A stretch of 64,000 nucleotides of DNA from assembly GCA_030647355.1 (NCBI GenBank), contig JAUSIS010000006.1, positions 26,221 to 90,220 of the forward strand. The letters are read 5' to 3'. This DNA comes from a bacterium. GTDB lineage: Bacteria; Patescibacteriota; UBA1384; VFKW01. A program made the translations under genes and the position numbers. Every line of letters begins with the position of its first letter. Position 1 is the stretch's first letter. A model generated the notes under the pieces. It had not been told where the DNA came from. It did no database searches and was given only the letters and a program-made list of their open reading frames with translations. Shown piece by piece: positions 3,433 through 39,110 of this stretch.

Positions 3433-4806
3433 ATGTACGATTGGACTAGAATGTGTGTGGGAATGCTCGGGGCAGGGATTGAGAATATATCGCTGACGCG
3501 TTATTTATTAGCGCAAGGTGCCAAAGTAATTGTTTATGATCAAAATGATCCAGCTTTGGTTGGTGAAAAGATGGGCAATTTGGAAAGTGACAATTTGATT
3601 ATTGTGGCAGGAAAGAATTATGTAGAGAAACTCTCTAAGCATGATTTATTCTTTCGTTCGCCTGGTATGCCCTTGGGATATGCTCAAGAGATAACTAAGC
3701 AAAATGGGAAACTCTCTAGTGCAATGCAGCTCTTTTTTGAACTTTGTCCGGCTAAAATTATCGGCGTAACCGGAACTAAGGGCAAAGGAACTGTGAGCAG
3801 TTTAATATTTGAAATATTAAGTCGTAGGAAGTCCAATGTATATTTAGCGGGCAATATCGGCAGGGCACCTTTTGACTTTATTGATGATTTAAAAGAGAAT
3901 GATTGGGTTGTAATGGAGATATCCAGTTTTCAGCTTGAAGATATGACTCTTAGTCCACATATAGCAGTGGTTTTAAATATTACGCCGGACCATTTAGCAG
4001 CTTCAACACAGAACAATCCAAATTACCACAAGAATTTTGATGAGTATGTTATGGCTAAGAAAAAGATATTGGAGTATCAAAAAATGGATGATTATGCTGT
4101 TATTGTGGCAAGTGAGATTGGGAAGCAGATTAAGAAGGTAACTGCCGCTGAAGTTTATGTAGTAGCGGGGGATTCTCGGAGTGGTTGTGTAATAATAGAG
4201 AATAAATTTGTTGTTCGGCTTGGTGGTAAGCTGGTTGAGATCATTGGTACTAATGAAGTTAAGTTATTGGGGCAGCACAACTTGATTAATATACAAGCTG
4301 CTATTATGGCCTCATTTTTAGCAGGAGCAAATAGAGACGATATTGGCCAAGTGGTCGCAGACTTTAAGGGTCTTCCCCATAGATTGGAGTTTGTGCGTGA
4401 AGTAGGAGGTAAAGAATTTTATGATGACTCATATGCGACCGACCCCGATGCAGCAGTTGCGGCGATCAGATCTTTTATCCAACCGGTTGTTTTAATCTGT
4501 GGGGGGGCTTCGAAAGGCGCTGACTTTGACGAATTGGCTCAGGCGATCAAGGCTTCTTCGGTAAAAGCGGCGATACTGATGGGGGATGAAGCAGATAGAA
4601 TAGAAAAAGCTTTGGAAGAAGCTAATGCAGATCTAGCTCTCGAGAAAAATCTAGTTGGCATGAAAGATATAGTTGGAAGAGCAAATGAGCTGGCTAAGAT
4701 AGGAGATGTGGTTTTGCTTTCTCCTGGCTGTGCTAGTTTTGGACTGTTTGAATCGGCTAGAGATAGGGGAGAACAATTTCAGAGGACAGTTAATGGGATC
4801 AAGTGA
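3433..4806 (+). CDS. murD: UDP-N-acetylmuramoylalanine--D-glutamate ligase MurD
   Basis: GVTGTKGKGT P-loop, Mur ligase middle and C-terminal domains. The ORF opens at 3391; the ATG at 3433 has a better RBS (GGAGGTAGAGAT). Confidence 0.85.
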   Translation: MYDWTRMCVGMLGAGIENISLTRYLLAQGAKVIVYDQNDPALVGEKMGNLESDNLIIVAGKNYVEKLSKHDLFFRSPGMPLGYAQEITKQNGKLSSAMQLFFELCPAKIIGVTGTKGKGTVSSLIFEILSRRKSNVYLAGNIGRAPFDFIDDLKENDWVVMEISSFQLEDMTLSPHIAVVLNITPDHLAASTQNNPNYHKNFDEYVMAKKKILEYQKMDDYAVIVASEIGKQIKKVTAAEVYVVAGDSRSGCVIIENKFVVRLGGKLVEIIGTNEVKLLGQHNLINIQAAIMASFLAGANRDDIGQVVADFKGLPHRLEFVREVGGKEFYDDSYATDPDAAVAAIRSFIQPVVLICGGASKGADFDELAQAIKASSVKAAILMGDEADRIEKALEEANADLALEKNLVGMKDIVGRANELAKIGDVVLLSPGCASFGLFESARDRGEQFQRTVNGIK

Positions 4807-5945: not shown

Positions 5946-7076
5946 ATGTCGGTAAATTTTTATAAATACAAATTTGTTCTAACGGGCGGCGGAACGGGTG
6001 GGCATATAATGCCGCTTATCGCTATGTTCGATTATTTGCAGGAATATCCAGTAGAAATCATTTATATTGGTGAATCGGGGGGCAGGGAAGAAAAGATTGC
6101 CGAACAAAATAATATTATTTTTAAAGGGATTGCCGCTGGAAAGTTACGGCGATTCAATGACATAGGATCACTGCTTAGTAACTTTTTAGATATTTTTCGA
6201 ACTATCATAGGAATAATCCAGTCACTTAATTTTTTAGTTCAATTTCGTCCTAATGCAATTCTCTCAAAGGGTGGCTATGTCAGTTTGCCTGTGGTGATAG
6301 CAGGGTGGGTACTCAAGATTCCCGTTCTCGTGCATGAATCTGATATGGAAATGGGGTTGACAAACAAATTTAGCTTGAAGTTCACTAAGTTTCTTGCAAC
6401 CGGCTTCCCCATTGAGAATTATTCAAAATGGGAGGATTTAAAAATGGTTTTTACCGGTACGCCGATTGACCGGGATTTTTTCAATCTCAAGGCTACAAGC
6501 AGTGATTATGAATTCTTTGGGTTCAACTCGAGAAAACCTGTGTTATTAGTTACCGGTGGTTTACAAGGAGCGCATGTTATAAATGAGAGTATAAGAAAAA
6601 TATTGCCAAAGTTGCTTGAGAATTGGCAGATTATACATCTCAGCGGCGAAGGTGATTATGATATATTTATAGATATAAAGGCGAATTTGGATAAGTATGA
6701 AGATCGTTATTCGGTATTTCCTATACTGGGTAAGGATAGAATTAAAGCCATGCGAATAGCGTCGCTTGTGGTAAGTAGAGCTAGTGCCACGACTTTGGCT
6801 GAATTATCCAGTATGGCGAAGCCGGTAATATTGATACCCTTATCTTCTGCGGCATCTGATCATCAAAATAAAAATGCTAGAGTGTTTGAGAGCCAAGGCG
6901 CGGCAACAATTATATCTGAAAAAGAGTTGACTGGAGATAAGCTTTATGAAACAATTAGGTCCCTTGGGGAGAACAGGGGTAAATTAGACGCTATGGGGAA
7001 AGCCATGGAGACATTTAGCAAACCGGAGGCGGGAAAGTTACTTATGGAACAATTAATTCAGATGATTCATGAATGA
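5946..7076 (+). CDS. murG: Undecaprenyl-PP-MurNAc-pentapeptide-UDP-GlcNAc GlcNAc transferase MurG
   Basis: N-terminal G-loop LTGGGTGGHIMP. GT28 C-terminal domain. Confidence 0.9.
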   Translation: MSVNFYKYKFVLTGGGTGGHIMPLIAMFDYLQEYPVEIIYIGESGGREEKIAEQNNIIFKGIAAGKLRRFNDIGSLLSNFLDIFRTIIGIIQSLNFLVQFRPNAILSKGGYVSLPVVIAGWVLKIPVLVHESDMEMGLTNKFSLKFTKFLATGFPIENYSKWEDLKMVFTGTPIDRDFFNLKATSSDYEFFGFNSRKPVLLVTGGLQGAHVINESIRKILPKLLENWQIIHLSGEGDYDIFIDIKANLDKYEDRYSVFPILGKDRIKAMRIASLVVSRASATTLAELSSMAKPVILIPLSSAASDHQNKNARVFESQGAATIISEKELTGDKLYETIRSLGENRGKLDAMGKAMETFSKPEAGKLLMEQLIQMIHE

Positions 7077-8490
7077 AGAGGTAAGTATGAAGCATGTGCA
7101 TTTTATCGGGATAGGCGGGGTTGGTATGTCAGCTTTGGCAATCATCGCGCAGCAAAAAGGAATGAAAGTTACCGGATCGGATGTTGAGGACATTTACTTT
7201 ATTGGCGATATGCTCAAGGACAATCATATTAATTGGAAACCTTTTAGTGTGGAAAACCTGAAGGATAAACCGGATATTGTGGTAGTGGGAGCGGCGTGGG
7301 ATGAGAAGAATGTTGAGGTTCAGGAAGCTAAAAAACAACATTTGACTATCAAGACGTATTCAGAATTTTTAGGTGAAATAATGCAGGATTATAAAGGTGT
7401 CGCAGTTGCTGGTATTCATGGTAAGACGACCACAACGGCTATGATTGCTTTTTTACTTGCGAGCGCAAAAATGAGTCCTAGTTTTTTGATTGGATGCAGA
7501 GTAGCTCCTAATTTAGGCAGTAACGCTAGGTTAGGAGAAGGTGAATATTTTATTACAGAGGCGGATGAATATAAAAAATCGTCGAGCGATTTTACCAGTA
7601 AGTTTTTAGATCTTAAGCCGGAGATAGCGGTTGTAACGAGTATCGAAATGGATCACCCGGATATTTTTGAAACTGTTGAGGATGTCTACAGAGCATTTTA
7701 TCGTTTTGCTTGTAAAGTGCCTAGGTCGGGATTGGTTATTGGGTGTGTTGATTGCGACAAAGTGAAGAAACTGTCATTGAGTCTAGCTGATAGACGTTTT
7801 GAATCGTATGGGTTTTCTTATGGAGCCGACTGGCGGATTATTGAATACCAAGTTGAACCCGGAGAGCAATCCTTTAGTATTAAAAGAGATAAACAGATAT
7901 ATGGGCCGTTTAAGTTGACGATTCCCGGGGAGCATAATATTCTTAATGCGACCGCAGCTATAATAGTTTGTTTAAAAATCGGAGTTAAGCCGGCAACTCT
8001 ACAGCGCTATTTGCCTGAATTTTCCGGAGTTGAGAGACGCTTTCAGGTTCTAGGAGAAAGGGAAGGGGTTGTGGTTGTAGATGATTATGCACATCACCCT
8101 ACATCAATTAGGGCGACGTTACAAGGAGCTAGGTCCTTTTATCCTAATAGAAAAATTTGCTGCGTGTTTCAACCGCATACATATAGCAGAACGAAAGAAC
8201 TACTTGATGAATTTGCTAAGTCCTTTGATGGCGCTGATCTTGTTTTGATCACAGATATTTATGCTTCAGCAAGAGAAAAATCAGGGAGAATTCATGCCAG
8301 GCATTTGGTGGAGGAAACCAAGAAATACAATAGTCATGTATATTATGTCAGTAAATTAGACGAAGCAGTTGATTTCTTAAAAGAGAATCTAGAGCGGGGA
8401 GATGTGTTGGTGGTGATGGGGGCGGGTGATATATACAAGGTAGGAATGGATTATTTGAATTTACCTGTTTCGGCGGATTTGAAGGATTAA
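7069..8490 (+). CDS. murC: UDP-N-acetylmuramate--L-alanine ligase MurC
   Basis: HFIGIGGVGMSALA and GIHGKTTTTAMIA motifs. An alternative start is the ATG at 7087. Confidence 0.9.
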   Translation: MNEEVSMKHVHFIGIGGVGMSALAIIAQQKGMKVTGSDVEDIYFIGDMLKDNHINWKPFSVENLKDKPDIVVVGAAWDEKNVEVQEAKKQHLTIKTYSEFLGEIMQDYKGVAVAGIHGKTTTTAMIAFLLASAKMSPSFLIGCRVAPNLGSNARLGEGEYFITEADEYKKSSSDFTSKFLDLKPEIAVVTSIEMDHPDIFETVEDVYRAFYRFACKVPRSGLVIGCVDCDKVKKLSLSLADRRFESYGFSYGADWRIIEYQVEPGEQSFSIKRDKQIYGPFKLTIPGEHNILNATAAIIVCLKIGVKPATLQRYLPEFSGVERRFQVLGEREGVVVVDDYAHHPTSIRATLQGARSFYPNRKICCVFQPHTYSRTKELLDEFAKSFDGADLVLITDIYASAREKSGRIHARHLVEETKKYNSHVYYVSKLDEAVDFLKENLERGDVLVVMGAGDIYKVGMDYLNLPVSADLKD

Positions 8491-21306: not shown

Positions 21307-21396
21307 GAAATATCCCTCCAGTTATGTGAATATTATATCACATTGGGCGATATATGTGCGGTTTGGCGACGGATTAAAATTGCTACTTTCTTTTTG

Positions 21397-21470
21397 TCGG
21401 GGCAGGCAGACTTGAACTGCCGACCTCTGGACCCCCAGCCCAGCGCACTAGCCAACTGTGCTATGCCCCG
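21397..21470 (-). tRNA. tRNA-Pro (anticodon GGG)
   Basis: Manual cloverleaf on the minus strand: acceptor CGGGGCA/TGCCCCG, D stem GCAC/GTGC, anticodon stem CTGGG/TCCAG, loop CUGGGGG, T stem GGCAG/CTGCC, T loop TTCAAGT. 74 nt, no encoded CCA. Confidence 0.8.
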
Positions 21471-21482
21471 TTGAGTAAAAGT

Positions 21483-21540
21483 TGAGCGTACTAGCCTCCG
21501 CCTCCGCAGCTGGCGGATGTGCTATGCCCTGCAAGGTTTT
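21483..21540. repeat. Degenerate copy of repeat family F2 (CCGCC-N4-GGCGG hairpin module)
   Basis: CTCCGCCTCCGCAGCTGGCGGATGTGCTATGCCC resembles the inner hairpin and 3' part of F2 copy 61125-61240 and the 41-nt palindromic insert in topA/recR. Confidence 0.45.
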
Positions 21541-21731
21541 TATGGCTCTAATCGGGCTACAAATTGGCCCAGGTATGTGCTATTTGCTTTGAGCAAATAT
21601 GGTGGATGTTCTGTCTTCGACACCACAGTGCCGAAGAACAGCGAACTTCCATATGAATTGGTGTTGACCCAAAATGTAGCCGATTAATTAGAGCCGAATT
21701 GATTATATAATTTCTCGAGTGCTACGGCAAG

Positions 21732-24004: not shown

Positions 24005-24676
24005 ATGGGGATCTTAGGGATATCAATAATACTTTCAATTGCGGTGATTATTTTTATCGTTGCCCGGCGCTTACCTGATACGCGTTATGTAGAACAGCAT
24101 CCAAGATATAACAAGCCGTTTAGTTCACCATTTATCAGTAAAATAAGTGATTTTTTTCGGGGTGTTCTAGGTAAGTTGCCTATAATTAGAAGTAGAAACT
24201 GGAGAGGGGCAGATACAAAACCAGAAAGCGGTGAGCTGGAGAAAGAACTGAAGAAGCCTGAGGATAGAGATTTTTGGATTGAAAGCGGTGGTGATCCGAG
24301 CAGTCGTCTGAAGCCCGGTCTGGTTGTAAAAGCATATTTCGAGGAGGCAGAGGCGGCTTTTCAAGCGAAAGATTATCGCAAAGCAGAAGCATTATTTATA
24401 GAGATTGCAAAAGATCACCCCGGAGATGTAAAGGTATTTAACAGACTAGGTGTGATATATTTAGAGCAGAAGAATTACGAGGATGCCATAGAAGCATTCT
24501 CTACAGCCTTGAGATTTGATAAAACAGTTGCCAGCAGGTTTTATAATTTGGCTTTAGCGCATATTGGGCAGGGCAACTGCGCCGATGCAAAAAAAAATCT
24601 GAAAGAGGCACTTTTATTAACACCCGGGAATGAAAAGTATAAGAAGGTACTTGAACAAATCGAAAAAAAATGCTAA
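24005..24676 (+). CDS. TPR-repeat protein with N-terminal TM anchor
   Basis: N-terminal hydrophobic helix. C-terminal TPR-like repeats (AEAAFQAKDYRKAEALFIEIAKDHPGDVKVFNRLGVIYLEQKNYEDAIEAF). Confidence 0.6.
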   Translation: MGILGISIILSIAVIIFIVARRLPDTRYVEQHPRYNKPFSSPFISKISDFFRGVLGKLPIIRSRNWRGADTKPESGELEKELKKPEDRDFWIESGGDPSSRLKPGLVVKAYFEEAEAAFQAKDYRKAEALFIEIAKDHPGDVKVFNRLGVIYLEQKNYEDAIEAFSTALRFDKTVASRFYNLALAHIGQGNCADAKKNLKEALLLTPGNEKYKKVLEQIEKKC

Positions 24677-24798
24677 AATATTTTGAGGGCATTTTTTTAT
24701 ATAATGGGAGTTGTAACTTATAAAGTAACTGCTGAAGCGGGGGAATGTTTGCCTTGTATCAACGCAGTTTAGAGGTTAGGGTTTCTCATTGAGACTAT

Positions 24799-24821
24799 GC
24801 CGCCTTAGCTCAGTGGTAGAG
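24799..24821 (+). pseudogene. 5' fragment (acceptor + D arm) of a second tRNA-Thr copy
   Basis: GCCGCCTTAGCTCAGTGGTAGAG is identical to nt 1-23 of the intact tRNA-Thr at 24875, followed by CCCTCACC. Confidence 0.7.
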
Positions 24822-24874
24822 TCCCTCACCTTTTAATCTTACAAGTCATAAGGTTAGAGTTCTTCACAGGATAA

Positions 24875-24946
24875 GCCGCCTTAGCTCAGTGGTAGAGCAA
24901 CACTTTTGTAAAGTGAAGGTCCCGAGTCCGAATCTCGGAGGCGGCT
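24875..24946 (+). tRNA. tRNA-Thr (anticodon UGU). T-loop is unusual (TCCGAAT, C at position 55).
   Basis: Manual cloverleaf: acceptor GCCGCCT/AGGCGGC, D stem GCTC/GAGC, anticodon loop UUUGUAA, T stem CCGAG/CTCGG. Confidence 0.7.
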
Positions 24947-24962
24947 CTGAAAGGTGAGGGAT

Positions 24963-25001
24963 AAAGTGAAGGTCCCGAGTTCGAACCCCGGAGGCGGCTC
25001 T
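24963..25001 (+). pseudogene. 3' fragment (anticodon 3' strand, variable and T arms, acceptor 3' strand) of a second tRNA-Thr copy, with canonical TTCGAAC T-loop
   Basis: AAAGTGAAGGTCCCGAGTTCGAACCCCGGAGGCGGCTCT, preceded by GGTGAGGG, the inverted partner of the CCCTCACC that follows the 5' fragment. Confidence 0.7.
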
Positions 25002-25169
25002 GGTGAGGGGTAAATAGTAGATCGTAGGTTCAAATATTTCCATTGTCTTTGCTGATGAGATTATAGGGTTCAAGTCGCTTCTTTCGGCTTAAAATCGTAA
25101 ATTGAAGCCAACAGCGAACCAATTAACTGAGTATTGTTGTATGTTCGCTATTGGCAGTAGCTTAAGATA

Positions 25170-25253
25170 GCCGGGGTGGCGGAGCGGTCAATCGCACCTG
25201 ACTGTAAATCAGGCGGCCTAGTGTCTACGGGAGTTCGAATCTCTCCCCCGGCA
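25170..25253 (+). tRNA. tRNA-Tyr (anticodon GUA), long variable arm
   Basis: Acceptor GCCGGGG/CCCCGGC, D stem GGCG/TCGC, anticodon stem CCTGA/TCAGG, loop CUGUAAA, long variable arm, T loop TTCGAAT, discriminator A. Confidence 0.8.
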
Positions 25254-25295
25254 CCGGAAGTGAGTTGCAGCTTATACTCTAACTCATTGATTTTT

Positions 25296-25368
25296 GCCGA
25301 TGTAGCTCAGTTGGTAGAGCAACTCCATGGTAAGGAGTAGGTCACCGGTTCAAATCCGGTCATCGGCT
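25296..25368 (+). tRNA. tRNA-Thr (anticodon GGU)
   Basis: Acceptor GCCGATG/CATCGGC, D stem GCTC/GAGC, anticodon stem ACTCC/GGAGT, loop AUGGUAA, T stem ACCGG/CCGGT, T loop TTCAAAT. Confidence 0.8.
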
Positions 25369-25673: not shown

Positions 25674-25880
25674 AGAAAAGGTGAGGGACGATTCCTACAG
25701 CTCCTGCCAACAATGTGAGGGATGACTTCTTCCGCTCTTGTGAAATTAAGGGAAATTTTTCTATTATTTCTCTGGTCAGGAATTATATATAATAATCCCG
25801 ACAGCGCTAGTTAAGTTGTTATTTGACAAAGAAATTGTGCTTGATATAATTTATTTGTATTTGAACTATTAGGAGGGGTT

Positions 25881-32856: not shown

Positions 32857-33172
32857 GTGGCAAGAGATATAGGGCAAAGGCCTTGTTCTCTGGTTGCTTA
32901 AAACCCCTCACCCTTTAAGCAAAGGATGAGGGATAATAAGGAGGTTCCCAGCTCTTTCTGAGCTTGTCAATATCTGTGTGTTGTTGGGACATTATGGCGA
33001 TATTAGCAGATAAGGATGATGAGTTGAGAAAGGGCTGGGTAGGTCGGTAACCGACAACGGTATTTTCATTCGTTTATTTGCAGCCAGAAATGGGAAAATG
33101 TCAAATGACAAATTTCCAATGTCAAATAATTAACCCGCCGTCGCTGAAGCTATGGCGGGCGAAGGAGAAAAA

Positions 33173-33769: not shown

Positions 33770-34110
33770 GCTTTGTCGCTTCGCTCCTCGCAATGACAGA
33801 GAACTGCTGTTCGCAGTGACACGGAAAGTGGAGAAGATTGCCGCGCTTCGCTCGCAATGACAGGAAAGTAAGATTGCCGCGCTACGCTCGCAATGACAGA
33901 AGGGAGATTGCTTCGGACGACACTCGCAATGACAAAGGAAGCTTCTCGCAATGACAAAGGAGAGATTGCTTCGGACGACGCTCGCAATGACACGGAAAGT
34001 GGAGAAGATTGCCGCGCTGCGCTCGTAATGACATAAGCACACTCGCGATGTTCGTCAGAAAGATTGCTTCGTCGCTACGCTCCTCGCAATGACACGGAAA
34101 AAACGCTGGT
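33770..34110. repeat. Cluster of ~7 hairpin repeat units (GATTGC-N12-17-GCAATGACA), the last one a long perfect palindrome
   Basis: Repeated GATTGCCGCGCT(T/A)CGCTCGCAATGACA and GATTGCTTCGGACGAC(A/G)CTCGCAATGACA units separated by 6-12 nt. 34067-34130 forms a ~28-bp inverted repeat. Confidence 0.85.
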
Positions 34111-34148
34111 CATTGCGAGCGAACAGCGAAGCAATCTATAATGGAAAT

Positions 34149-34445
34149 ATGAAAGATAAAAATTATTACGTATATTTTATGATGAATTTCAGTAATACGG
34201 TTATTTATGTGGGAGTAACTAATGATTTAGCGAGAAGAGTTTACGAGCACAAAAATAAGCTTATTGATGGGTTTACTAAAAAATATAATGTAAATAAACT
34301 TGTGTATTATGAAGAGTATGATGATCCGCTGATCGCAATCGCCAGAGAAAAACAGATAAAAGCTGGATCGAGGGATAAAAAGATGAGGTTGATTGCGAAA
34401 GATAATCCAAGGTTTGAAGATTTGTACGATGGTTTGTTTGGTTGA
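34149..34445 (+). CDS. GIY-YIG domain nuclease family protein (~98 aa)
   Basis: YYVYFMMNFSNTVIYVGVTNDLARRVYEHK is a canonical GIY-YIG core. The ORF opens at 34089 inside the repeat; the Met at 34149 is the likely start. Flanked on both sides by the hairpin repeats. Confidence 0.8.
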   Translation: MKDKNYYVYFMMNFSNTVIYVGVTNDLARRVYEHKNKLIDGFTKKYNVNKLVYYEEYDDPLIAIAREKQIKAGSRDKKMRLIAKDNPRFEDLYDGLFG

Positions 34446-34446
34446 G

Positions 34447-34605
34447 AAAGAAGATTGCCGCGCTTCGCTCGCAATGACAGAGGGGAGATTGCTTCGGACG
34501 ACACTCGCAATGACAAAGGAAGCTTCTCGCAATGACAAAGGAGAGATTGCTTCGGACGACACTCGCAATGACAGAAATAGTGCTTGCGATGACGAAGGAA
34601 AGGTA
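34447..34605. repeat. Second cluster of GATTGC..GCAATGACA hairpin repeats (4-5 units)
   Basis: Same units as 33770-34110, starting immediately after the GIY-YIG stop codon. Confidence 0.85.
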
Positions 34606-36791: not shown

Positions 36792-37922
36792 ATGGGTGGG
36801 AATTATAAAGAATTGAGTGTTTGGCAAAAGAGCGTGGAGCTGGTGAATGATGTTTATTTACTGACACGTAAATTTCCTAGTGAAGATAAATTTGGTATTG
36901 CACAGCAGATGGAGAGGGCGTCAGTGTCTATCCCTTCGAATATTGCCGAAGGACATCGTAGACAGCATAAAAATGAGTATGTACAGTTTTTACATATAGC
37001 TTTAGCTTCTGCTTCGGAGTTGGAAACTCAGCTAGAAATATGTAGGAGGTTTGACCATTTGAAGAGTTATAAATTTGAAGCGATTGGTGACCGACTTGAG
37101 GAGATAATAAAAATGTTGCATGGCTTAATAAAAGCAGTTAAATCTACTCATACCTGTGATCTGAAACCTCATGCCTCCAGGGGGTATACCTTGGTGGAGA
37201 TACTGGTTGCGTCCACGATATTTGTCAGCGTGGTTGGAATGGGAATTGCTACGTATTCTTCTGCCAGCGGTTTTCAGTCCAAATCGGCGGTTATTCGAGA
37301 GACCAACCAGGCGGCTCGCTATGCGATGGATACGATTGTCAGAGATATAAGGTTAGCTGATAGTTCGGTTGCTTACACAAAGACCATAGGCCCGGATGAT
37401 TATGTATATACTTTTAAGGGGTTTGCTTTTGAGCAAGCTGGCGGAGGTTTAGATACTACCAATAATTCACTTACACAATATACAGGGATAAAGGTTTATC
37501 GGAAAGGAAGTGGTGATTGCAAGGATTTTGTTCAGGAAGTTTATTATTGGATACAATCAAATACGATATCTCAGCAAATCTCCTATTATAATCATACAAA
37601 CGCGAGTGATAAGGATAGTCCAGCTGATTATAATAGTCCTGTTTCCCTTTTATCTGGTTGCACGGTCTCTTCGGCAGCCATACTGTCCGATAGAGTACAG
37701 CTTAGGGTTGATCCAGTGACCAGTGTTACTCAGGCTTTTTTTCAGGGTCAGTCGGCGTTTGATGTGGAAAAGAATAGCGCTCCGTTTTCGATTGCAAATT
37801 TAGCGCCATACCTCAAAGCATCAATGGATGTAGTGCCGATTCATAGTGCCCTTAGTCCTGGAGAAGAAAGTAGGACCATTCATCTTGAGACGACGGTGAC
37901 ACCGCGATTAGTATCATTTTAA
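36792..37922 (+). CDS. Chimeric ORF: N-terminal four-helix-bundle (TIGR02436 / '23S rRNA intervening-sequence protein') domain fused in frame to a PilW-like minor pilin
   Basis: aa 1-115 (LSVWQKSVELVNDVYLLTRKFPSEDKFGIAQQMERASVSIPSNIAEG..ELETQL) match the four-helix-bundle family. From aa ~125, RG|YTLVEILVASTIFVSVVG is a prepilin N-terminus. An internal Met (MLHGLIKAV.., nt ~37110) could be an alternative pilin start. Confidence 0.6.
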   Translation: MGGNYKELSVWQKSVELVNDVYLLTRKFPSEDKFGIAQQMERASVSIPSNIAEGHRRQHKNEYVQFLHIALASASELETQLEICRRFDHLKSYKFEAIGDRLEEIIKMLHGLIKAVKSTHTCDLKPHASRGYTLVEILVASTIFVSVVGMGIATYSSASGFQSKSAVIRETNQAARYAMDTIVRDIRLADSSVAYTKTIGPDDYVYTFKGFAFEQAGGGLDTTNNSLTQYTGIKVYRKGSGDCKDFVQEVYYWIQSNTISQQISYYNHTNASDKDSPADYNSPVSLLSGCTVSSAAILSDRVQLRVDPVTSVTQAFFQGQSAFDVEKNSAPFSIANLAPYLKASMDVVPIHSALSPGEESRTIHLETTVTPRLVSF

Positions 37923-38919: not shown

Positions 38920-39110
38920 AGATTGCTTCGTCGCTACGCTCCTCGCAATGACACAGGAAAGTAAGATTGCCGCGCTACGCTCGCAATGACGAAGGAAGCT
39001 CCTCGCAATGACACAGGAAAGTAAGATTGCCGCGCTACGCTCGCAATGACAGGAAAGTAAGATTGCCACGCTTCGCTCGCAATGACACAGGAATGAGCTC
39101 GCAACGACAA
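38920..39110. repeat. Tandem array of ~36-nt GATTGC..GCAATGACA(GGAAAGTAA) hairpin repeats (4-5 units)
   Basis: GATTGCCGCGCTACGCTCGCAATGACAGGAAAGTAA repeated head-to-tail with minor variants. Same family as 33770-34605 and 35530-35590. Confidence 0.85.

Follow-up and report, generated by a model that had tools for sequence, protein, structure and literature searches.

A live tRNA-Thr(UGU) gene among broken copies of tRNA-Thr in a genome of the Patescibacteriota

An intact tRNA-Thr(UGU) gene and the pieces around it

In the stretch of DNA analyzed here (64,000 nt of contig JAUSIS010000006.1, GenBank assembly GCA_030647355.1, Patescibacteriota; hereafter, the window), an intact tRNA-Thr(UGU) gene is nested between a 5' piece and a 3' piece of a tRNA-Thr gene, each of which abuts one arm of an inverted repeat. 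Additional 3' pieces follow downstream, so that one live tRNA-Thr(UGU) gene is found amid at least four broken tRNA-Thr copies. The features of the locus are listed below; sequences compared with it are designated by L numbers.

24773-24798, + strand: flank U1, preceding the 5' piece and similar to flank U2 over the first 16 nt
24799-24821, + strand: dead 5' piece, GCCGCCTTAGCTCAGTGGTAGAG, tRNA-Thr positions 1-23 (acceptor strand and D-arm)
24822-24833, + strand: left arm, TCCCTCACCTTT, immediately adjoining the 5' piece
24834-24874, + strand: 41-nt spacer including flank U2, directly 5' of the intact gene
24875-24946, + strand: intact tRNA-Thr(UGU) gene (ARAGORN, Rfam), the sole functional gene of the set; no CCA encoded
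24947-24949, + strand: trailer of the inner gene, CTG
24950-24961, + strand: right arm, AAAGGTGAGGGA, flush with the start of F1
24962-24999, + strand: F1, the young 3' piece, tRNA-Thr positions 36-73; the whole unit extends to 25010
25000-25010, + strand: trailer of F1, consisting of CTG (25000-25002) and a shortened arm, GTGAGGGG (25003-25010)
25010-25051, + strand: F2, an older 3' half of another allele, starting in the anticodon loop and including the 3' end
25066-25103, + strand: F3, the oldest piece, consisting of the T-arm, the 3' strand of the acceptor and the apparent original trailer

The intact gene was called by ARAGORN as tRNA-Thr(UGU) at 24875-24947, and its Rfam score is 66.2 bits at a threshold of 29. 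The 5' piece is identical to positions 1-23 of this gene (24875-24897) in 23 of 23 nucleotides, and F1 with its CTG (24962-25002) matches 24909-24949 in 38 of 41; the two outer pieces and the inner gene represent the same allele, with 3 differences in 64 nt. When the window was scanned with a tRNA-Thr profile built exclusively from the Thr tRNAs of other organisms, F1 was recovered with E = 8e-7 and the 5' piece with E = 8e-5, so that both similarities are more than chance. The T-loop of F1 is canonical but its T-stem, as read from the sequence, contains an A52-C62 mismatch. The spacers measure 52 nt between the 5' piece and the inner gene, 15 nt between the inner gene and F1, and approximately 11 nt between F1 and F2. 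The trailer was duplicated together with F1, with a gap of 4 nt (CTG-AAAG-GTGAGGGA vs CTG-GTGAGGGG). Tandem Repeats Finder yielded no output for the region 24600-25300 because the copies are too diverged.

A preceding reading of the same DNA that was based on the letters alone (the sequence-only reading) had described the order of 5' piece, arm, intact gene, arm and 3' piece, and all of these were found where it placed them. It was also correct in that the outer fragments fall short of a complete tRNA by about 12 nt of the anticodon arm: jointly, they are missing positions 24-35 and with them two of the three anticodon bases. The 8-bp inverted repeat that it reported at the junctions is longer, the arms at 24822-24833 and 24950-24961 being perfect reverse complements over 12 bp. 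F2, F3 and the debris at tRNA-Trp and tRNA-Pro described below were missed.

The flanks of the 5' piece and of the inner gene show some mutual similarity. The first 16 nt of U1 are 81% identical to 24851-24866, within U2 (p ~0.008), and AGAGGTTAGGGTTTCTCATTGA in U1 also matches the sequence upstream of tRNA-Thr(CGU) in L028 (p ~0.003). The similarity of the spacer with U2 (24834-24874) to native upstream flanks is weak and non-significant (p 0.07 for L023 and 0.05 for L026). Two candidate derivations were rejected, namely that the 5' piece and the next 53 nt (76 nt in total) constitute a decayed full-length tRNA (p 0.2-0.65 for the remainder compared with Thr tRNAs), and that U1 and U2 are decayed 3' halves (p > 0.8). 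A motif of the form AG(A/C)GGTTAGGG..TTCTCATTGA precedes the 5' piece at 24771-24792 of the window and is found again upstream of the tRNA-Thr(CGU) gene at 1762-1785 of L028, which is an unrelated metagenome contig (p ~0.003).

Older pieces and two tRNA-Thr alleles

Within a larger accumulation of tRNA-Thr pieces, the nest forms the youngest layer. F2 begins at GTAAA in the anticodon loop and is 72% identical to the 3' half and trailer of the tRNA-Thr gene of the closest relative, L022 (score 17 vs 6.6 +/- 1.2 for shuffled sequences, p <= 0.0005); the profile of relatives matches it at model positions 34-61, and its comparison with the adjacent inner gene gave no significant match. A degenerate form of the F1-type trailer is located downstream of F2. 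F3 aligns with the T-arm, acceptor strand and trailer of the L022 gene (score 15 vs 7.3 +/- 1.3, p ~0.001). The allele represented by F2 and F3 is that of L022, and L040 has the same T-arm. The decay of the pieces increases outward from the gene. The presence of L022-type F2 and F3 implies that the locus once held a gene of this second allele that has since been replaced or lost.

The inner gene, the 5' piece and F1 share an allele that closely resembles the syntenic gene of L041, with one difference in the 5' 48 nt of the inner gene, and that is 93-97% identical to tRNA-Thr(CGU) of L026-L028, the inner gene being 97% identical to that of L026. The T-loop of the inner gene is TCCGAAT, with C in place of the nearly universal T at position 55. 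The same T-loop is found in both Thr genes of L041 and in tRNA-Thr(CGU) of L026:

Window, 24875-24946: inner tRNA-Thr(UGU) gene
L041, 4297-4371 and 4485-4559: the two tRNA-Thr genes
L026, 2056-2130: tRNA-Thr(CGU) gene

The occurrence of C55 in L026 and L041 marks it as a trait of the lineage rather than decay, and the inner gene looks functional. The sequence-only reading had reported both T-loops correctly, the canonical outer one and the inner TCCGAAT, but its description of the latter as aberrant does not hold.

Just upstream of tRNA-Tyr, there is also an imperfect 26-nt inverted repeat (25094-25119 and 25143-25168), the left arm of which resembles a Thr anticodon-loop piece (TCGTAAATTGAAG); this may be another pair of direct and inverted tRNA debris.

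The 12-mer and tRNA debris elsewhere in the window

Pieces of tRNA genes adjacent to their cognate intact genes, and relatives of the junction arms, were detected at three other places in the window:

21505-21529, - strand: 5' piece of tRNA-Pro, 48 nt upstream of the tRNA-Pro gene (21396-21470)
25674-25755, + strand: tRNA-Trp debris, consisting of AGA and the 12-mer, a 3'-end copy starting in the T-loop, a shortened second arm and a possible third unit
32905-32932, + strand: 28-nt hairpin CCCTCACCCTTT-AAGC-AAAGGATGAGGG, both arms with one-base changes, found by regular-expression and fuzzy searches

Exact copies of AAAGGTGAGGGA occur three times in the 64 kb, at the Thr 3' piece, at the Thr 5' piece (inverted) and at the Trp 3' piece (25677-25688, after tRNA-Trp), and all three are flush with an internal breakpoint of a tRNA piece. 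At tRNA-Trp, the segment 25689-25722 matches the 3' end of the gene with its trailer (score 18.5 vs 6.4 +/- 1.2, p <= 0.0003); the copy comprises the last 21 nt of the tRNA, from C56 in the T-loop, followed by ACAATGTGAGGGA. The possible third unit has p ~0.05. Each Trp unit was also observed to terminate in GTGAGGGA, and the 12-mer lies in the first spacer. The units are 49-53 nt long at Thr and 34-36 nt at Trp, and each ends in GTGAGGGR. The tRNA-Pro piece matches positions 3-14 exactly (12 of 12) and continues into a degenerate D-arm (p ~0.001); a second, weaker Pro piece (ATAGCACA...CTGGGCC) is possible further upstream, at about 21566-21585. Of the five tRNA genes in the window, three have cognate pieces. 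Apart from these, direct repeats of 12 nt or longer at short range belong to protein repeats or dispersed-repeat arrays, or occur at chance level.

The hairpin is predicted to fold as DNA at -9.3 kcal/mol (z = -2.6) and is intergenic, among pilus genes; its flanks, when tested for derivation from tRNA, gave no significant result. The possibility that it is the dif site of the chromosome was rejected, with GC skew positive throughout the window and no terminus here. The skew ranges from +0.15 to +0.33 across positions 1-64000, and nearly all predicted genes are on the + strand. We also rejected the 12-mer as a general motif of tRNA trailers, the trailers of Tyr, Thr(GGU) and Pro scoring at background. 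A search for the junction arms near the tRNA genes of relatives found none.

Genomic context and relatives

The gene order in this part of the window is tRNA-Pro (on the - strand), M50 peptidase, zinc-ribbon protein, DNA polymerase III delta', TPR protein, tRNA-Thr(UGU)-Tyr-Thr(GGU), L33 and tRNA-Trp. The adjacent TPR protein is GenBank MDO8513148.1, and its relatives are labelled Saccharibacteria, Berkelbacteria or Patescibacteria; genome, metagenome and protein searches for nearer relatives gave none with more than 57% identity in this protein. The order up to the TPR gene is common to L022, L023, L024, L040, L041 and L042. A single, uninterrupted tRNA-Thr(UGU) gene is present in the syntenic L022, L040, L041, L042 and L005, and also in L002 and L004; in L023 and L024, the 5' part of tRNA-Thr is uninterrupted until the contig ends inside the gene.

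Debris of a similar kind is found in two related genomes. In L042, 3'-end copies of 17-20 nt that start in the T-loop lie beyond inserts that follow tRNA-Tyr and tRNA-Trp:

L042, 4152-4372: 221-nt insert after tRNA-Tyr, non-coding, homologous to the next
L042, 4871-5030: 160-nt insert after tRNA-Trp, non-coding

A 49-nt block (88% identity, E = 3e-11) is common to the two inserts, as is another of 29 nt, and a search of both against Rfam matched no family. Within the Tyr insert, 13 nt of the T-arm of tRNA-Tyr recur in inverted orientation; as read from the sequences, the Trp inserts of L042 and L004 also appear to hold an inverted T-arm copy. In L004, a Berkelbacteria genome, a 3' piece of tRNA-Trp starting in the T-loop lies 98 nt downstream of the gene (7063-7179). 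In the same genome, a short tRNA-like remnant ending in CCA comes directly after tRNA-Thr(UGU) (6721-6760). In L041 (GCA_034680565.1), an open reading frame (ORF) for an HNH endonuclease at 3819-4295 separates the TPR gene from tRNA-Thr(UGU); this may be a free-standing homing endonuclease at the same locus.

A scan with the 23-mer of the 5' piece identified two viral contigs, from unrelated hosts, in which a tyrosine integrase gene is directly followed by a 5' half of tRNA-Thr(UGU) that ends in the anticodon loop:

L037, 4642-5800: integrase gene and tRNA-Thr 5' half
L038, 6759-8000: integrase gene and tRNA-Thr 5' half

Each resembles an attachment site in which the 5' half of the gene, not the 3' half, is carried.

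The ORFs tested between 11 and 40 kb of the window encode, among others, proteins of repair, cell wall and type IV pili and tRNA synthetases. Dispersed-repeat arrays with the units CTCGCAATGACA and AGATTGC, spaced by 22, 36 or 58 nt, occupy 33787-34540, 35547 and 38938-39050, and a small GIY-YIG nuclease ORF (34089-34445) is surrounded by them. Among the pilin-like genes, the ORF at 36792-37922 encodes an N-terminal domain of the 23S-rRNA-intervening-sequence (bAvd) type; a reverse transcriptase was sought in the ORF adjacent to it and not found.

Origin of the pieces

The explanation that we favor, with a probability of roughly 45%, is that the pieces are inert scars of repeated insertion and recombination in tRNA loops, which were later trimmed and were amplified by unequal crossing-over around one live gene. 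Under this scenario, short foreign or mobile DNA would have inserted site-specifically into tRNA loops, and each insertion would have rebuilt the gene and displaced its old part outward, in the manner of tyrosine-integrase elements. The inserted DNA would subsequently have been lost nearly completely, the 12-mer being the putative remnant of its end, and unequal crossing-over between the gene and a displaced piece would have added the units F1 and the second Trp unit, both of which carry trailers, the signature of such an exchange. The outer pieces, the arms and the older pieces now probably do nothing, and they are most likely co-transcribed with the gene and trimmed off.

Several lines of evidence argue for this explanation. 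The end-fragments are in direct orientation, with the 5' piece upstream and the 3' pieces downstream, and the breakpoints of the 3' pieces fall within loops (F1 and F2 start at 35/36, in the anticodon loop, and the Trp copy at 56, in the T-loop). F2 and F3 match the L022 gene rather than the adjacent one, the same 12-mer abuts breakpoints at the Thr and the Trp genes, and the pieces are confined to tRNA genes. Among the relatives, those with a plain gene lack the nest, L042 has a shared insert at two tRNA genes, and the layout at tRNA-Trp of L004 is alike; moreover, as L037 and L038 demonstrate, integrating elements with a tRNA-Thr 5' half exist. Of the three explanations put forward by the sequence-only reading, a footprint of recombination at a tRNA attachment site comes closest to what was found, in the sides on which the pieces lie, their orientation and their starts in the anticodon loop, the agreement being one of geometry alone. 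The same reading held that no integrase remains nearby, and indeed there is none between the pieces or in the genes tested between 11 and 40 kb.

Other observations weigh against the scenario of insertion into tRNA loops. Classic crossover sites do not include the D-stem, where the Thr 5' piece breaks off (position 23), or the D-loop, where the Pro piece does. Random deletion does not readily account for the shrinkage of every insert to 8-15 nt, leaving one and the same layout, "3 nt plus 12-mer", at two loci. An element carrying only the 3' half of the new allele cannot pair with the old 5' half, and therefore at least one step must have brought in or kept a whole gene. Plain tandem duplication would be expected to copy the trailers along with F1 and the second Trp unit, as is seen. 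Only 14-52 nt lie between the pieces, the ORFs tested between 11 and 40 kb included neither an integrase nor a transposase, and four scans of viral contigs for an attP with the 3' half or the junction sequences gave nothing or chance matches. Finally, the nest was seen in one genome only, and its right half rests on a single assembly.

The serious rival, which we consider less likely, is purely local partial duplication, through replication slippage, template switching or unequal crossing-over at a hairpin-rich tRNA gene, in the manner of the trnF pseudogene arrays of plastids (PMC3786074), without any mobile element and with the older pieces being the remains of a tandem paralogous tRNA-Thr. 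The small units (34-53 nt) with tiny spacers and included trailers fit this explanation, as do the bordering motif, the TAAA microhomology at the F1/F2 junction and the failure to find a recombinase gene nearby. Thr isoacceptor genes lie side by side in relatives, for example, in L002, and templated copying of the complementary strand 116 nt away could have produced the left arm as a short insert. Slippage, however, cannot yield the same insert at two tRNA genes of L042, and local events leave unaccounted for the identity of the 12-mer at two unrelated tRNA genes and its recurrence in a hairpin 8 kb away, given that it is not a trailer motif. Furthermore, the flank of the 5' piece is only weakly similar whereas the 23-nt tRNA part is 100% identical, unlike the outcome of a simple tandem duplication. 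We favor insertion over local duplication; both explanations ascribe F1 and the second Trp unit to unequal crossing-over.

A further possibility, which must be regarded as a long shot, is that this lineage of the candidate phyla radiation harbors an undescribed family of very small, non-coding mobile DNA that inserts into the anticodon loop or T-loop of tRNA genes and restores the gene, whose end it either duplicates or brings along. The 12-mer arms and the 160-221-nt inserts of L042 would then be traces of this family, and the nest a piece with a whole replacement tRNA-Thr between 12-bp inverted ends.

Still less probable is a tiny cassette of 140 nt (24822-24961) with 12-bp inverted ends and a whole replacement tRNA-Thr that inserted, harmlessly, into the anticodon arm of the resident gene, with the solo arms at Trp and the hairpin as its kin or remains. 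In favor of the cassette, its perfect 12-bp inverted repeats directly adjoin the two outer breakpoints, further arms are present at 25677 and in the hairpin at 32905, the single allele of the 5' piece, the 3' piece and the inner gene fits a single event, and the flanks TAGAG and TAAAG agree in 4 of 5 positions. The flanks GGTAGAG and TAAAGTG, however, are not a clean duplication of the target site, which has lost 12 nt; the ORFs tested between 11 and 40 kb include no transposase, and the arms number only four copies in 64 kb. The right arm stands alone at Trp and after F1, with neither a left arm nor a 5' piece upstream. In addition, the trailer of the cassette is homologous to the outer trailer, and accordingly the "insert" is a copy of the same locus and not foreign DNA. 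The single 140-nt insertion envisaged by the sequence-only reading agrees with the flush arms, and leaves unexplained the older 3' pieces of the other allele, the co-duplicated trailers and the 12-mer at tRNA-Trp.

It is highly improbable that a metagenome assembler joined reads of several strains or tRNA genes into a false nested path. Admittedly, tRNA genes break assemblies, all short Logan contigs of the relatives stop inside tRNA genes, and the right half of the nest lacks an independent assembly (an exact look-up of the L33 protein for a second one returned no record). The left half, by contrast, from the 5' piece across the arm junction to the anticodon of the inner gene, is matched exactly in the Logan assembly L001 of run SRR13727527. 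The contig of L001 ends there, but since the contigs of relatives end in tRNA genes as well, this is uninformative about the nest. The copies in the right half differ from each other, by substitutions and a 4-nt gap, and are therefore not an artefact of a k-mer loop; their decay grows with the distance from the gene, and like debris is found at two other tRNA genes and in other genomes.

The least probable explanation is a function for the outer halves, either as a split or intron-containing tRNA or as a tRNA-like RNA, with the 12-bp helix holding them together after excision of the inner tRNA. In its favor, the arms pair with each other in the predicted fold, as do the outer acceptor strands, and the layout of half, complement, complement and half recalls the split tRNA genes of Nanoarchaeum equitans, but positions 24-35 with two anticodon bases are gone, the outer T-stem has a mismatch, the z-score of the fold of the whole region is just -2.2, and the arrangement is absent in all syntenic relatives. 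To our knowledge, bacteria have no archaeal splicing endonuclease. The intron and split-gene possibilities raised by the sequence-only reading are not supported either: ARAGORN, with introns of 0-300 nt allowed, gave the inner gene alone and did not call the joined halves a tRNA, Rfam at E up to 10 detected neither an intron nor any other family, and the relatives that span the gene have one uninterrupted copy.

Comparison with known systems

A close parallel is that with elements, such as prophages and genomic islands, that integrate into tRNA genes by means of tyrosine integrases. In the Islander approach, an intact tRNA gene together with a cognate end-fragment is the signature of integration (PMC4383910; PMC9897764), and the anticodon loop and the T-loop are the two main crossover classes listed (PMC4383910). 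As with these elements (Islander; Williams 2002, cited in PMC4383910), the locus described here has an intact gene and direct end-fragments, the 3' ones downstream and the 5' one upstream; the 3' pieces start in the anticodon loop or the T-loop, the layers are serial, and the older allele is displaced outward. However, Islander requires an intervening element of 2-200 kb (PMC4383910), whereas here there is no element and no integrase, and the spacers are 8-52 nt long. Also unlike in these elements, duplication extended to the trailers, the D-arm is where the 5' pieces end, and one 12-mer lies at the junctions of two tRNA genes.

Another parallel is provided by the plastid trnF(GAA) pseudogene arrays of Brassicaceae, Solanaceae and Asteraceae, which consist of 32-73 bp partial copies with a common short border motif and no mobile element (PMC3786074). 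The locus shares with these arrays the partial copies beside a functional gene and a bordering motif. Those arrays are, however, organellar, are located upstream only and are made of pieces without acceptor stems (PMC3786074), whereas here end-fragments of two alleles lie on both sides, and the motif is shared with a second tRNA gene and inverted. In an array of the trnF type, all copies would come from the adjacent gene; here, F2 and F3 represent the L022-type allele.

Split and intron-containing tRNA genes are exemplified by the split tRNAs of Nanoarchaeum equitans and by the group I introns in the anticodon loops of bacterial tRNA genes. The locus resembles these in that a 5' half is followed by a stretch complementary to one that precedes a 3' half, but differs from them in that the halves are incomplete (12 nt missing), are not conserved and have a complete gene between them. 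Neither a group I core nor a bulge-helix-bulge motif (position 37/38) was detected by Rfam (E up to 10) or by ARAGORN (introns of 0-300 nt).

Miniature inverted-repeat elements, and the cis-mobilisable deletion derivatives of integrative elements in which nothing but the attachment sites is left, are small and non-coding, possess inverted repeats or attachment sites, and depend on an enzyme encoded elsewhere. The perfect 12-bp terminal inverted repeats are a point of similarity with such elements, but here there is no target-site duplication, the copies are few, no partner enzyme was found, and the cargo would be a whole tRNA gene. Within the 64-kb window the arms number four copies, and no transposase was found in the ORFs tested between 11 and 40 kb.

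The structure is a variant of a known phenomenon, in which unexplained junction sequences recur.

Implications

The locus records the swap of one tRNA-Thr allele for another, the new one being nearly identical to tRNA-Thr(CGU) of other organisms. For annotation, the implication is that a fragment of a tRNA gene is not always the edge of a genomic island, and that nested pieces of this kind may be taken for an intron or a split gene. In the window, three tRNA genes out of five have cognate end-pieces no more than 350 nt away and no element, as do tRNA genes of two related genomes; together with the recurrent inserts and junctions, this suggests that tRNA loops are recombination hot spots in these small genomes. 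If a mobile agent were confirmed, it would represent a new class of small elements that target essential genes harmlessly.

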